A stretch of DNA of 64,000 bases from an uncultured Desulfospira sp. (GCA_963663165.1 OY760175.1:4160001-4224000); one strand, 5' to 3'. Counted from the first letter of the stretch, positions 18,001 through 36,000 are shown. Program-made: the numbers.

Positions 18001-21000
18001 GGAAAACCAGCCTGGATGAGCTTCCCCAGCTGTTCAACGTGCTCAAAGGGGAAATGAGCCTTGTGGGCCCCCGGCCCCCTATCCCCAAAGAGGTGGATGA
18101 ATACTCCATCTGGCAGCGTCGGCGGCTTTCCATGAAGCCGGGCATGACCTGCCTGTGGCAGATCGCGCCCCACAGAAACGAGCTGAGCTTTGAAGACTGG
18201 ATCCAGCTGGACCTGCAATACATCGACACCTGGTCTATATTTAACGACATCTGGATCCTGGTGCTGACCGCCCGGGCGGTTCTTACTGGCGCCGGGCAAT
18301 AGCGGACAGAAAAGCCGCGTGTAACGGATCATATTTTTATAATCTAACCAAGGGGCACCAGGCTTGATCTTAGAGCCAAAACAAGACGTTCCTCGGCACG
18401 GTTACTAACGGCCACGGGCCGCCTTGGTTATCCAGCCAAGAACCGCCCACAACGAATAATGAAAGTCTTATCAGGATGTTAGTGAGACTTTCATATAACG
18501 GCCACGGGCCGCCTTGGTTATCCAACCAAGAACTGCCCACAACAAATATTGAAAGCACTCAACAGGTTGCTGAGTCTTTCATATAAAAAAGTTCAAAATT
18601 TGTTTGCGGCCACATCTTGAAGCAACTCATGGGCAAATAAGTTTTATGTTTGGGAAATACGTTCTATATTTTGCAATGTCCCTTGTGACTAAGTCAAATG
18701 AAGATACTGTAGCGTGAGCACCAATGAAGAAATCCGGAAGGGTTGAACTTTTAGTGCCCTTTTTTCTTCGATACTCAAGGAATGTCTTTCCAGCCAAAAA
18801 CAAAGCTTCGCGTGGAATTTCCAGGACTTTTACACCCACTTGTTCAACAGCGTCCTCGACTTCTTCAATACGGTTGAAACCAATTGATATTTGGGTATAC
18901 ACAATTGAATTAATAAATAATGTATTCGTCTGGCTATACTGACTTAATACGTCTTCAGACCAGTTTCCCCATTTAGGATCATTCGTAAACAGATCAAGCA
19001 ACACACACGAATCAATGAAAATTCCGTTCATTTTATTTTTCTTGTCATATTCATGATTTCGTCTGTAGACATTTTAGCTGTAGCAATCCCCCTTAACTTC
19101 GAAAATTTAGAGGTCGTTTTGTTTTTTGATACTTTGACCAGATAAAATCTTCCGTTATCTTCATGAAAATCAACGTCTGTCTCTGGAGCAATACCTAATA
19201 TTTCCCTTACATTCTTGGGGATAGTGACTTGGCCTTTTGTGGTTACACGCATAATAAATCTCCTTTTATAAAGTAATACCAATATAGTATTACTTTTTGA
19301 TTCGTGCAACGATTTTTTGAAATCGGGTAGCCGGGGGTAGTTATCTACCCCAGACCCCCTCAGAACCGTACGTGACAGTTTCCCGTCATACGGCTCAAGC
19401 ATTTCTAAGGCTAAGCCTTGCGGGGCCGCCCGGTTGTTTGAGCAATAATGAAATTTACAGTCATTTCATAGCATGCGTCCTTGGGCATCGGCCAGGAAGT
19501 ACTGTTTTTTTTTCCTGGTCAAAGACATACGTCCTTTGAAAATGCCTTGGATGTAAATGCCGTACGCTCCTTTAACAACCTTTGCGATACGCATCTACAG
19601 TCTTTTAGCAGCATAAAGCTGCTGATGGGCGCACCAGCTAATGCCGTCATTTGCTTTCCCATCTTAAAAGATTCTCTAAACTCTCTCGCAAAGAAACACC
19701 TGCCCGGGTGTGTCTGTAGTCACACCCGCCGGACGTCAGCTTCCTTTCGGACCGGGTAATATCGGGGTTTTCTCCTCAACCCGTATCCACCTCATTACGA
19801 GATGGCCTTCGCTTTTTCCTGCATCTTACGCCCGCACCCCCATCAGTGTGCCTTGCGGTTTCACCTGCCGAATGTTCCCGGCGAAGATACGGGGTTTCCA
19901 CGTTCCACATTATTGCCGATTAATGGATGACTTAGGCCTGCCCACTGCACCGGCGGCGCAACATCTCACGCGGCAGTTCCGACACCTGCATCCTGACCAC
20001 TCACCTTTTGGTCCAAGCTTACCAGCCTCTTTAGCTTGTTCTCCCTGACGACGCTTAAGGAACATTCAATTAATTTGACCATATCATCCAAACCCTTGCC
20101 CTCACCCGGAATGAGGCTTCCAGGAGGGTATCCACCTCACGGCTTCCACCCCTTCCGCAACTGCGGAATTCGGTACTTTGTCGGTTGGGCTTCACACCGT
20201 TGCCGGATGCACCGGCCATTGCCAGAACCATGAAACAAGTCAATGGATCGACCGGCAGCAAAATAAACTGTTTCATGGTGACTTTTACCTATCCCTGTCA
20301 GTTCAGAGATGTGGCATATCTGAATCAACGGGCAGTTTATTCTCTGATGTTTTCATGTGTATCCGGCACTTTGAAAGATTTTGGGCTCAACCCACGGCAC
20401 CTTGGTGCTCAGATCGGTATAACCATGGTCCTTCACACCAATAGCAGAAGATTGGACTTTCACCCGCATATTCACGTAATTGTTCCAGGTGGCGGTGTTG
20501 ATCCATCCAGACGGCAATGGAAAAAGAAAAAGGCAAGTATTTGTTTAACCAGAAAGCCCTGGCCAAGGTTTTCCGGGCACGTTTCCTGGATGGATTGAAC
20601 AAAAAAAATTTGCCGATCCCCAAAGGTGCTCGTCCCAAATGGGTTGTTGATTGTGAGAGGGTTGGAGCAGGTCTCTCTGCCCTGAAGTATCTGTCCAGGT
20701 ATTTATACAGGGGAGTGATCAGCGAGCGTAATATTATTGCCAACCAGAACGGTCAGGTTACCTTCAGGTATATTGACGGCAAAACCAAAAAAGTATGTAC
20801 GCGAACCCTTAACGGCGAAGATTTCCTGCGCCTGATCCTGCTTCATGTATTGCCCCGGGGATTTCGCAGGGCAAGGGATTACGGTTTTCTTCATGGGAAT
20901 GCCAAAAAAACTGCTCTTTCTGGTACAGATGATTCTCCACGTACGGATTACGGCAATAGTGCGTCGGCCAAGGCCTGTGTTTAAATGCCCCCATTGCGGG

Positions 21001-33000: not shown

Positions 33001-36000
33001 AACCATAACGTTGCATAAGTCCCCAGAAGCATCCAAATAATGTTCATATCTTAGTGACCAAATTTGTTTGTAGTTGATTAAGTTCCCGTCTGGCAACAGG
33101 TCTTCAATTTTATTGTAGCCAATAAATGTTTTTATATTTGCTGGTATCATTTTTAATAGCAGAACGGGGAGCTCAGCCGACCGGGGCGTATAACCGAGCA
33201 GGTTGTCGAAGCCAAGTTTTTTCGAAAACCAAGCACTTTCGAAAAGCCGCTAGCCCCCCGGGTCGGCTGCAGCGTTTTGTTGTGCAAAATGTCTTCTCCC
33301 TAAACCAAAAAGATTTATTAAATCTAATCATTTAAAGGATGCTTGCCCACCTGAACATAAAGCCAACAACTCTTTACTGCTCAACAATTCCGCTGCCATT
33401 TGGCGTAAAATAATATATTGCACGTCTGGAACAGGAATGTTTTTGGGAATTCCGTCGATTATTTTTGTAATATACCCAACTGCTGGACCATTTTTAACCT
33501 GATCGTATTCTTTGGAGAGTTTTTTATCAACGTGCGCCCCTCCATCCTTATTCGCTGCCCCAAGATATATATCTCTTCTCGATATTCTCATGGTCGTTTG
33601 TAATATTGATTGGTTAATCCATGTTTTTATAGAAACGTCTGTATATTTAGTATCGTTAAATCTGCATGCGGGGACAAAATGGGTTCCTGGAGTAGGGTGA
33701 TTACAACCAATTGCGTACATACCGCCAGCCATAAATGCAAGCTTGTCGTCGTCTTCGCCATCACCTACAGTAGATGATAATTTAATATCAGAAGCTTTTA
33801 AGTGCTTTAATAAAGATGTAGAATTTTTGGTATCGTGAATTAACACCCTTATCGTTGTTGCAATTCTAAGCCCTTCATCTTTAAATCCTTGATCGAAAAG
33901 AATGCTTGATCTATGAAGAAACCCTAATTGTTCTTGTAATTTTTCTTTAAAATCAACAGCCATAAACGTCCTTTGTCAGGAAACAATCAAGTATTAATAA
34001 GGGATATAATGTTTGTCCAAGTGCAAAAAAAATCAAATTTTTAAATACCGTTAACTGATATTTGAACCTTCCGTTTCAAAGCACAACAGTGAAATAGGCA
34101 GAATGGGCCAATAGTATAATAGGCGGATTCTGCCTATTGCATTAATTGCAATTTTTGGGTATTATTTTACACAACTTGAACTACCCCCAGAAAGATATTG
34201 GATACCTACCATATGAATCCGGCAAAATCAACACACGAAAACGAAATCAAAAGATTTTGGGACAATTACATTAATCGTTTAGAACATGCTGGTATTAAAA
34301 GTAATGTTTCCAGGTGGTATGTGATCAGAGCCGAGCAGTATATCAAGGCTTTTCCGGATAAGCGTCTGGCCGATCATAACCCTGAGGACGTGGTCTCCTA
34401 CCTGGAGCAGCAGGGCCGGGCCGGCCGGATTCAGGACTGGCAGTTCCGGCAGCTGGTCGATGCTATACAGAATTTATTTTCCATGCTTGGCGTATCCTGG
34501 CTGTCGGATGTAGACTGGCAGTTCTGGATGGATTCAGCCGCGTCCCTGACAGAAGTTCATCCCACAGTTGCCGGCAGCCTTCCGGCTAAAGCAACCATTG
34601 AAAAATTATCCGGCCGAAAAGGCTCACAGCTTTCCGCTGTCCGCAAACTTCATGCAGATCTTCTGGAAAAGCTGCTGATCGTCTTGCGGACGAAGGGGTA
34701 TTCCATAAGAACCGAGCAGTCTTACGAATCCTGGGTAAGCCGTTTTATTGAGTTTTGCCAAAATCAGGACCCGGCCGGGCTTGGTAAGGTTGAAGTGGTC
34801 TCCTTTTTGCAACATCTGGCTGTTGGGCGGAATGTGGCGGAGAGTACCCAGAACCAGGCGTTGAATGCCCTTGTCTTTTTTTATGACAAGGTTTTGGAAC
34901 AGCCCCTGGGGGATCTTGGGGATTTTGTCCGGGTAAAACGCCCTAAACGGCGACCGGTTGTGCTGACCCGGATTGAAGTGGCAAAACTGATCGACCACAT
35001 GGAGGGCCGCCAGAAACTGATGGCCTCCCTGCTTTATGGCACCGGCATGCGGCTGATGGATTGTATCAGGCTCAGGGTCCAGGATATTGATTTTGGGTAT
35101 TATCAGATTGTGGTCAGGGACGGAAAAGGCAAAAAAGACCGGGTAGTTCCATTGCCGGAAGGGCTTGTCAGCGATCTTACGGCCCATCTTGAAAAAGTTC
35201 GTAAACTGCACGAGGCAGATTTGGAAAAAGGGTTTGGAGAGGTCTATCTACCCTATGCCTATGACCGCAAATCCCCCAAAGCGGCAAAGGAATGGGGATG
35301 GCAGTATGTGTTCCCCAGCGGACGGCTTTCCGTTGATCCAAGGAGTGGAAAAACACGCCGTCACCATATTCACGAAAATGGTCTTCAAAAAGCCGTGAAA
35401 AAAGCGGCGCAGCAGGCCCAGATTACGAAAAGGGTAAACTGCCACGCCCTTCGCCACAGTTTTGCCACCCATCTTCTGGAAAGCGGTTATGATATCCGTA
35501 CCGTGCAGGATCTGCTCGGCCATGCCAATGTTTCAACAACCATGATCTATACCCATGTGCTTAACCGGGGCGGGAGAGGCGTAAAAAGTCCCTTTGACGT
35601 GCTGTAATTCGAAACTAAACAGCGGGTCGCCGCCACATTGAAAACCGTAAAAATTTTTGATATAAATCAGGACAGAGCCGGGACCTTTTCAAAGGGGATG
35701 GCAAAAGAGCGGGTTCTGGTCGTGCCGAATATGGAAGACGCTGTTAGAATCTGCGATATCGTCAGCTCAGTGACCGTTGGCCGGTCCCACCCGGTTTTTA
35801 AAAAAGATTTGCTGCAGACTATAACTATCTGAAAATATATTTATGTTTCGTTTTGGACGATGCCTTGGCCGGATAACCAGGGACAGTCCGGTTTCTATCT
35901 TTTATAGCAACCCCAATTTCATGGAGGAAAGACAGATGAAACACATTTCAAAAGTGATGGTTGTTCTGGCCGCGGCAAGCCTTCTGTTTGCCGGACGGGC

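Follow-up and report, generated by a model that had tools for sequence, protein, structure and literature searches.

Endonuclease-less IIB1-like group II introns that probably use the integron core site as their homing site

Integron-associated group II introns

The closest described counterparts are the IIC-attC introns (S.ma.I2 and its relatives), which share with the introns reported here that they are endonuclease-less bacterial group II introns and that specialization on attC characterizes a lineage inside a single protein class. In the available text of PMC3001079 and PMC7923331, IIC-attC introns belong to class C and enter TTGT/T in R'' on the bottom strand (slashes mark insertion or crossover points throughout), opposite to cassette transcription; the attC stem-loop replaces IBS2, Pc is blocked and an outward promoter is supplied. 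In contrast, the introns of the present locus are CL1/IIB1-like, occupy the top strand at GTTRRR/Y in R', run in the sense direction and are predicted to pair with the target through EBS1 and EBS2. In reviews, attC specificity is assigned to class C and all other lineages are said to use ordinary homing sites (PMC4424553, in the sections available).

A sense-oriented intron in a cassette array, a single class C case from 2012, is cited in the accessible part of PMC7923331. An earlier note on this DNA regarded sense insertions as single curiosities so far. Beyond class C, one sense insertion is already in print: UHB.I2, an IIB1/CL1 intron from behind an attC on a contig of a soda-lake metagenome (Sonbol and Siam 2021, PMC7923331). 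As described in the available text, UHB.I2 resembles the present introns in its IIB1 RNA, its CL1 protein without an endonuclease domain, its cassette direction, its position immediately after attC and its toxin-antitoxin-rich arrays. It differs in that its truncated contig holds one copy, for which that text reports poor exon conservation and considers a structural role; neither EBS1-R' pairing nor a clade is proposed there. Judged from this description, UHB.I2 would be a member of the core-site clade presented below. Part of that clade has TTGCGA intron starts, which match the unusual 5' UUGCG of UHB.I2.

The IIB1/CL1 introns of Thermosynechococcus (T.el4h, also Th.e.I3, and TeI3c/4c) have target sites unrelated to integrons. 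T.el4h is an IIB1 intron with a CL1 RT whose RNA displays the EBS2a layout, and TeI3c/4c is a 'twintron' of two close IIB1 introns in which ribozyme and RT come from different copies (PMC8643678, in the portions available). Neither a core-site-specific intron clade nor the EBS1-R' mechanism was found in the published literature.

The integron and its introns

The window, a 64,000-nucleotide stretch of an uncultured Desulfospira sp. (OY760175.1:4160001-4224000), encodes an IntI-type tyrosine recombinase, eight attC sites and co-oriented ORFs that run from 33963 down to 18627, that is, an integron (Table 1). The chromosome of this sulfate-reducer-like genome carries a single integron integrase, as noted earlier; intI is the sole match over the TIGR02249 cut-off genome-wide (456 bits; cut-off 265). 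Its product also matches Pfam Phage_integrase and SAM_4, and the ORF includes an N-terminal extension of ~150 aa. By-eye reading places a cassette-like start, TATTTAAAAA, after the putative attI core. About five of roughly ten cassettes in the window are toxin-antitoxin pairs, short of the earlier statement that most are.

Table 1 Features of the integron and its introns in the window.
Feature	Position	Strand	Details	Source
intI, integron integrase	34213..35607	+	ORF start 34198 or 34213; integrase domain from 34663	
Putative attI region	34040..34130	-	GTTAACGG core ~160 nt from intI start	By-eye reading
attC 1	33163..33287	-	Empty; R' GTTCTG/C	nhmmer
attC 2	32619..32746	-	Empty; R' GTTAGC/T	nhmmer
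attC 3	31956..32078	-	Empty in this assembly; R' GTTGTG/CGTTAAAAACC; junction 31953/31952	nhmmer
relE/xre toxin-antitoxin cassette	31213..31883	-		Pfam RelE, HTH_3
attC 4	31087..31211	-	Occupied; 5' exon end ...GAGCTCCCCGTCGTG	nhmmer, intron 5' motif
Intron A	28778..31082	-	Full length, 2305 nt	RF02012 94.5 bits, RF00029 72.1 bits
Putative EBS2a (C) and EBS2 (GGGAG) of intron A	30811..30818	-	UCA-GGGAG	IIB1 layout per available text of PMC8643678
EBS1 of intron A	30746..30751	-	CCUAAC, complement of R' core GTTAGG	Alignment scan, covariation
Intron B	27788..28777	-	ORF-less, ~0.99 kb, tandem directly behind A, without first GTG	
mazE/mazF cassette	27125..27708	-	5' leader = introns A and B	Pfam MazE_antitoxin, PemK_toxin
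attC 5	26997..27119	-	Empty	nhmmer
attC 6	26228..26330	-	Partial (model positions 1-103)	nhmmer
attC 7	25672..25796	-	Occupied; R' GTTCGG/	nhmmer, intron 5' motif
Intron C	23736..25668	-	1.93 kb; intron positions 1723-2095 deleted; protein frameshifted	
attC 8	22875..23003	-	Occupied; R' GTTCTCG/, spacing 4 nt	nhmmer, intron 5' motif
Intron D	22036..22870	-	ORF-less with further deletion	
IS91-family transposase fragment	20517..20984	+	Upstream of intron E	NF033538, 138 bits
Intron E	19322..20239	-	ORF-less; 5' end missing beside IS91-family fragment	
Last array cassette	18627..19402	-	AbrB/MazE-like antitoxin and PIN toxin; 5' leader = intron E	

The attC inventory was obtained with two nhmmer profiles. 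Four window seeds yielded 54 matches, 48 of them on the minus strand, and a second profile with 45 full-length matches as input yielded 55 (49 minus), in line with the 54 sites (49 minus) counted previously. The 54–55 sites, each ~125 nt long and together ~0.1% of the genome, align as imperfect inverted repeats of the form R''(..AAC)-L''...L'-R'(GTT..) in the 45-site and arm alignments, and by this sequence pattern are taken as attC sites. Introns occupy 13 of 54 (24%).

The window holds five minus-strand group II introns (five RF02012 and five RF00029 matches). Genome-wide, RF02012 gives 16 matches and RF00029 gives 20, of which 19 exceed the cut-off, and these counts reproduce the 16 D1-D4-7 and 19 domain V/VI rows listed earlier. 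The assignment to group II follows from matches over the gathering score, GTGCG starts and a bulged A in D6; the intron protein carries RVT_N, RVT_1 and GIIM domains (TIGR04416, 361 bits). The motif GTGCGACAYGA that begins the introns occurs 15 times in the genome. Thirteen copies lie directly behind an attC that ends in ...C(C/T)CCGTTnnn(n) or ...TTATCGTTnnn(n), and all 13 introns enter R' on the cassette-sense (top) strand, in the cassette direction, 3–4 nt after the GTT, as had been claimed. Both remaining copies had been described as introns behind a hairpin and GTT. This holds for the ectopic copy at 903578 (+), which follows a small non-attC hairpin and GTT; the motif at 845661 was rejected as an intron, its following sequence being unrelated and without an RF02012 match. 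Thus, 13 of 14 true intron 5' ends with this motif are at attC R'. A sixteenth 5' end, at 28777, lacks the first GTG and adjoins intron A; it opens the ORF-less intron B, which had been given as 27788-28724 and runs to 28777.

Intron A begins with GUGCG and has a D5/D6 with the bulged A, and a frameshift splits its protein into ORFs of 147 and 389 aa. The majority of intron copies are defective. Where two intact intron proteins had been counted, a single uninterrupted one (528 aa) was found among the five ORF-bearing copies examined, the copy at 1.888 Mb having a 441-aa ORF with an internal deletion. Several ORF-less copies retain the common blocks 1-699, 741-785 and 2153-2272 but differ in their flanks. 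At all 14 intron 3' ends the 3' exon begins with C or T, and the 14 flanks are distinct.

The 528-aa protein aligns over residues 10–492 with the T.el4h RT (6ME0_C), the highest-scoring solved protein (E 1.4e-165, 555 bits), whereas LtrA (3e-36) and class C RTs (6e-34 and 7e-33; 117–121 bits) score far lower. The ribozyme outside the ORF spans ~720 nt, with ~646 nt between the 5' end and the ORF. EBS1 and a putative EBS2 are both present, with a putative EBS2a two bases upstream of EBS2, which is the IIB1 layout; the low class C scores, the ~646-nt 5' region and the EBS2-like motif do not fit group IIC, and 13 of 13 cassette-sense insertions after GTTNNN(N) do not fit the bottom-strand TTGT/T insertions of IIC-attC introns. 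On one solved CL1 reference and the RNA layout, the introns appear to be endonuclease-less and IIB1-like, with a protein from the chloroplast-like 1 (CL1) lineage. An IIC-like hairpin reader was considered and rejected on the CL1/IIB1-like protein, the ~720-nt ribozyme and EBS1-IBS1 covariation.

Target recognition and insertion strand

The EBS1 loop occupies intron positions 332–337 and reads CCUAAC or a variant in which AAC is invariant. Its pairing partner is the R' core GTTRRR, the six bases that end the exon. An alignment scan over 44 introns gave a paired fraction of 0.845 for EBS1 against exon positions -6 to -1 and 0.595 for the next best window. Pairing is 6/6, with differing sequences, in L007, L008, L009, L010, L011, L012, L013, L018, L024, L039, L062 and L082. 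Among the 13 copies in this genome, ungapped EBS1-IBS1 pairing is 6/6 in none, 5/6 in seven, 4/6 in five and 2/6 in one. Copies with 4-nt spacing require a bulged base; attC 8, for example, pairs with the EBS1 of intron D (CGGAAC) given one bulged T. The putative EBS2 matches CTCCC (-12 to -8) and EBS2a matches G(-13), both in the attC 3' arm. This EBS2 pairing is 5/5 in L008 and 5/5 (CTCCC) in this genome, together with the G-C pair of EBS2a. No window stood out in the EBS2-IBS2 covariation scan over 44 introns (best 0.62), so that EBS2 has support in close relatives only. These are probably IIB1/CL1-like introns for which the integron core site itself serves as homing site, the pairings directing entry between positions 6 and 7 of GTTRRR/Y, and they would lie in sense because a short loop of the intron pairs with the GTT core conserved at the end of each recombination site.

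The earlier note had proposed a hairpin-targeting lineage that uses the folded top strand. Its top strand and integron specialization stand, but the target is read by EBS1-IBS1 pairing. An intron that behaves like class IIC, seeking the folded attC top strand and entering at a fixed distance after the stem, would account for insertions always just past the R box and for the ectopic 903578 copy; both strands of every attC are able to fold (DNA fold energy averages -21.5 kcal/mol top and -21.7 kcal/mol bottom over 45 sites; p = 0.63), and Sonbol and Siam speculated on such a structural role (PMC7923331, in the available text). It is nonetheless unlikely, given a CL1-like rather than class C protein and the covariation of EBS1 with the exon. 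Furthermore, folding into a hairpin would engage the IBS bases with the opposite arm and keep them out of reach of EBS1 and EBS2. Clade members with a retargeted EBS1 (L009, L010 and L065) occupy sites without an attC, the intron of G013 lies behind GTTGTG in AT-rich, non-attC DNA, and the L008 intron is inserted at an attI (GTTAGA), with a gene for an integron integrase 108 nt away (TIGR02249, 375.6 bits). Since one relative lies at an attI and others, their EBS1 matched to the site, lie where there is no hairpin, none is required; single-stranded or folded DNA may add to targeting.

The core-site consensus RYYYAAC...GTTRRRY, part of the earlier argument for the strand, is non-discriminating because both attC strands read that way. 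Blind to strand as this consensus of a quasi-palindromic site is, and with fold energies alike on both strands, the introns might be ordinary bottom-strand antisense insertions, like IIC-attC introns, on a mis-assigned strand. This is highly improbable, since three other features agree on the assignment: intI is adjacent to and divergent from the cassettes, every cassette ORF lies upstream of its attC on the minus strand, and, both in this genome and in relatives, the minus strand has the extra, extrahelical attC bases on its 5' arm, corresponding to the bottom strand's 3' arm, which is their place in published attC bottom strands (PMC3053210, in the part available). In addition, the ORFs upstream run in the direction of the intron in 10 relatives. 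With the sense orientation retained, insertion downstream of the G/TT crossover makes the intron, by geometry, the 5' leader of the next cassette, as first suggested.

Relatives, spread and implications

In relatives, attC status was a by-eye judgement on sequence, folding and alignment of the arms rather than the output of a formal attC model, and protein trees were quick searches with midpoint rooting. A branch with 99% support divides the 160-protein tree into sides of 64 and 96 rows; the 64-row side holds every one of the 27 attC rows as well as the one attI row, and the 96-row side holds none (60 known non-attC exons, 36 unknown). This distribution bears out the idea of a lineage specialized on integron sites, and the core-site clade would extend over at least Thermodesulfobacteriota, Chlorobiota and Acidobacteriota.

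Presence and absence of introns were observed between genomes. In the congeneric G001, a cassette with 98% identity over 250 nt directly follows its attC (GTTTGTG/CCTAAAAAC), and in this genome the same cassette carries an intron (GTTGTG/intron/CCTAAAAAC). All six introns in the G001 stretches examined are directly behind attC. Contigs of X1 and X3, two of four runs compared, all being contigs of unknown kind, join an intron 3' end to the start of the attC 3 cassette (joint 31950<-28776), a junction not present in the reference genome. The intron pattern could in principle derive from a few ancient insertions multiplied passively by cassette duplication and IntI shuffling instead of repeated retrohoming, as the intron lies inside the downstream cassette by the G/TT crossover, where IntI could move it, and most intron proteins are broken. 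Such passive spread is improbable: the 3' flanks all differ, the upstream attC sites are of different sequence subtypes, EBS1 variants differ between copies, the same cassette is empty in G001, and head-to-tail tandems occur at one attC (A and B here, three copies in L006).

Under repeated retrohoming to the core site, the EBS1 loop of domain I (NNNAAC) would pair with GTTRRR of attC R' on the cassette-sense strand, in this genome with additional pairing of EBS2 and EBS2a, and complementarity of sequence, rather than hairpin shape or the direction of replication, would set the strand. Cassette transcripts would include the introns, which would splice out without damage to attC or cassette RNA. 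Because the 5' exon persists at an occupied site, that site would be re-targetable, which would account for the tandem copies. ORF-less derivatives may be mobilized in trans by the single intact intron protein. Since insertion is downstream of G/TT, each intron would form part of the cassette that follows and travel with it under IntI.

We lean slightly towards a broader reading, in which a distinct CL1/IIB1 clade uses GTTRRRY (attC R' and attI) via EBS1 as a second, independent and mechanistically different integron-specific invention beside IIC-attC, its members being removable cassette leaders spread between arrays and hosts by IntI. The removable 5' leader lifestyle and carriage by IntI are suggested because the introns are sense-oriented, spliceable and downstream of the crossover. 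If this is true, group II introns have colonized integrons on two occasions, each time in the opposite orientation to the other and with a different recognition mode, and the sense orientation is explained without DNA structure. It would also mean that a retroelement is nested inside another mobile unit, the cassette, and is silent once spliced. Natural IIB1 introns already aimed at GTTRRRY would be candidate tools to mark or probe integron arrays, and one intact protein with many ORF-less copies would offer a tractable trans-mobilization system.

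The integron and its introns

The window contains a complete chromosomal integron, in which cassettes on the minus strand diverge from the plus-strand integrase gene intI. The product of this gene is the only match to TIGR02249 above the cut-off in the 6.74-Mb genome. An attC profile, seeded in the first round with four attCs of the window, located 54 sites genome-wide and its second-round version 55, of which 49 lie on the minus strand; most are grouped in three arrays. Rfam identified five group II introns in the window (A–E), all on the minus strand. For the entire genome, the 16 D1-D4-7 and 19 domain V/VI matches counted in the earlier note were recovered above cut-off, and the association with attC that it had described was confirmed. 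Of 15 genome occurrences of the intron start GTGCGACAYGA, 13 are directly behind an attC, 3 or 4 nt past the GTT of R', the end that bears the core GTTRRRY. One follows a small non-attC hairpin and GTT, and the occurrence at 845661 was rejected as a chance match. The intron-attC feature is real and specific.

Coordinates of the integron and intron features in the window
Feature	Position	Strand	Description
intI	ORF 34198/34213-35607; integrase domain from 34663	+	TIGR02249 456 bits, cut-off 265
Cassettes	33963 down to ~18600	-	ORF or toxin-antitoxin pair, then attC of ~125 nt
Intron A	31082-28778	-	full length; protein frameshifted
Intron B	28777-27788	-	ORF-less; tandem behind A; without first GTG
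Intron C	25668-23736	-	internal deletion
Intron D	22870-22036	-	ORF-less
Intron E	~20239-19322	-	5'-truncated beside IS91-family fragment
Candidate 13-nt target stretch of attC			one arm only; GCTCCCCGTTAGG

An uninterrupted 528-residue protein is encoded by only one of the five ORF-bearing copies examined. Blocks 1-699, 741-785 and 2153-2272 of intron A are common to several ORF-less copies with different flanks. Domain V of intron B (27850-27864) starts with GCGCC instead of the GAGCC of the other copies, which changes the catalytic triad, and its Rfam score of 59.8 bits is the lowest in the window.

Several further elements accompany the arrays. A short attC of ~60 nt and another sequence type (CACAAC...GTTGAAC), missed by the profile and recognized by eye only, follows an RHH/PIN cassette at ~21262-21318 on the minus strand. 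The array end (18400-18600) carries two tandem copies of a ~90-nt element ending ...GGCGGCCCGTGGCCGTTA, the 17-nt core of which is present in 72 copies genome-wide (40 plus, 32 minus); this element is possibly a repeat of the REP kind, or else another type of attC. These repeats fall in the first depth bin (18300-18833, 534 bases), where the summed contig depth of each of the four runs is far above that of any other bin. The decayed remains of another intI may lie on the plus strand at genome positions 5540264-5541065, beside the low-coordinate edge of the 5.54-Mb attC array: a tyrosine recombinase weakly similar to integron integrases is encoded there, split into two parts (81 and 52 bits) and containing one TAA stop.

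Orientation relative to attC

The earlier note had placed the introns on the top strand of attC, in the direction of the cassettes. Its core-site argument does not separate the strands, since RYYYAAC...GTTRRRY is read on both of them. Three other lines identify the minus strand as the top strand: the adjacent intI is divergent, each cassette ORF lies upstream of its own attC on the minus strand, and the imperfect repeat has its extra bases in the minus-strand 5' arm. In the folded bottom strand these bases come to lie on the 3' arm, as do the extrahelical bases of studied attCs (PMC3053210). The sense orientation of the introns stands.

Neither fold stability nor replication accounts for the choice of strand. 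The bottom strand is the more stable at 26 of 45 sites (p = 0.63), which is no difference. Cumulative GC skew has its minimum at ~4.0 Mb, near the integron, and its maximum at ~0.76 Mb, with dnaA at 2.117 Mb; skew is flat between 5.3 and 5.8 Mb, the region of the largest attC array. With a skew-based origin, itself an uncertain call, the 4.18 and 5.54-5.61 Mb arrays have the opposite polarity to the fork from that of the 1.86-1.92 Mb array. A replication-strand bias was rejected, as no lagging-strand account fits all three arrays.

Intron class and pairing with the core site

The intact intron protein aligns with the T.el4h reverse transcriptase (6ME0) over residues 10-492 with an E value of 1.4e-165, compared with only 1e-33 to 1e-36 for LtrA and three class C enzymes. 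According to PMC8643678, T.el4h is a IIB1 intron whose reverse transcriptase belongs to the chloroplast-like 1 (CL1) lineage. The ribozyme without its ORF measures ~720 nt, and a domain search found no endonuclease domain in the intron protein. Thus, the introns are not IIC.

An alignment was made of the 5'-terminal 660 nt of 44 introns, comprising the 13 of this genome and 31 relatives whose 5' end had been located. Every stretch of six columns was scored for complementarity between the intron and the six bases that end its own 5' exon. One such stretch was prominent, with a score of 0.845; the runner-up reached 0.595. The prominent stretch lies at intron positions 332-337 and forms the loop of a GCAGG/CCTGC hairpin; in intron A it reads CCUAAC, the exact complement of GTTAGG. 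In loci encoding relatives of the intron protein, this EBS1 loop changes together with the exon: CTAACG with CGTTAG (L012, L013, L024), TAACGG with CCGTTA (L011), CATAAC with GTTATG (L018, L062) and GCGAAC with GTTCGC (L007). At non-integron sites the matched loop and exon carry unrelated sequences, as GTATAG/CTATAC in L009, and likewise in L010 and L039. Among the 13 copies of this genome, EBS1 matches without gaps at 5/6 positions in seven, 4/6 in five and 2/6 in one, and no copy reaches 6/6; AAC opposite GTT is the part that never varies. All 14 of 14 3' exons start with C or T, corresponding to the Y of GTTRRRY. A motif further upstream, UCA-GGGAG, agrees with the arrangement of EBS2a and EBS2 in IIB1 introns and matches the G and the CTCCC in the conserved GAGCTCCCCGTT arm. 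EBS2 of L008 pairs 5/5 with a different sequence; a covariation scan for EBS2 across the 44 introns gave no clear peak.

Some introns of the attC clade (L011, L016, L024, L082, L103, L104, L113, L124, L152) begin with UCGCG, UUGCG or CUGCG, not GUGCG, and are inserted 1-2 nt past GTT, versus 3. Among the four loci checked, these boundaries gain support from 6/6 EBS1 pairing in L011, L024 and L082, and L016 pairs 5/6.

Relatives and signs of movement

Two independent samples were examined, of 79 genome and 79 metagenome loci, with attC labels assigned by eye. In the first, many introns are preceded by an attC-like repeat that ends in CGTTNNN, with an ORF of the same orientation upstream. In the second, the 5' end was located at 49 loci, and nine of these are further attC-associated cases. 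A BLAST search with the attC of each locus yielded no additional copies in the relatives' loci apart from two short matches. In the stretches fetched from the congeneric genome G001, six of six introns are behind attC; these stretches hold at least 87 attC of the same family, an occupancy much below the 24% of this genome. In L008 the intron occupies a GTTAGA site 108 nt away from a gene for an integron integrase, an attI position. In a tree of 160 proteins, a quick search rooted at the midpoint, the 27 attC rows and the single attI row all fall on a 64-row side (99% support), which includes a 39-row clade with 23 attC rows (97% support). The other side has 96 rows and neither attC nor attI among them (60 known other exons, 36 unknown).

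The integrases of the window (464/469 residues) and L008 (434 residues) both have N-terminal extensions of 120-150 residues before the TIGR02249 domain (window 34213-34662; L008 927-2231). The extensions do not align with one another, and that of L008 weakly matches the core-binding domain of the window integrase (E 0.008).

The 3' flanks are all different (14 of 14). The cassette behind the intron at 1886896 has a counterpart directly behind attC in G001 (98% identity over 250 nt), the junctions being GTTTGTG/CCTAAAAAC there and GTTGTG/intron/CCTAAAAAC here. No paired occupied and empty site was found inside this genome. In contigs of two public sequencing runs (X1 and X3), an intron 3' end is joined to CG/TTAAAAACC, the start of a relE cassette whose preceding R' is empty in the assembly; this intron-TTAAAAACC junction is absent from the reference genome. 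Only the contig joint at 31950 was used; most others connect repeated attC or intron sequence and are unreadable as rearrangements. The runs that match the window well consist of contigs of unknown kind, and three runs on record as RNA contain 6-9% of the sampled words. Tandems recur, as A/B here and in other loci, and are expected if the 5' exon is recognized. L006, from a Desulfatiglandales genome, has three head-to-tail introns of two sequence types (at 174, 2400 and 4625) behind one attC.

Classical IIC-attC introns are described as inserting into the bottom strand at TTGT/T, opposed to the cassettes (PMC3001079, PMC7923331), whereas the introns here are in the top strand and in sense. A 2015 review assigns attC specificity only to class C (PMC4424553). 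Sonbol and Siam (2021) describe one IIB1/CL1 intron, UHB.I2, in sense right behind attC, along with two class E fragments, and consider a possible structural role of attC (PMC7923331). None of the papers found in the limited literature collection searched describes EBS1 pairing to the core site, a IIB clade specific for that site, or a chromosomal integron colonised on a mass scale. The hairpin targeting proposed in the earlier note is replaced, because the EBS1 loop covaries with the exon and the protein is IIB1/CL1-like. Instead, a IIB1/CL1 clade probably homes on GTTRRR/Y by base pairing, and we infer that its members may be spliced, mobilised in trans and transported with cassettes.
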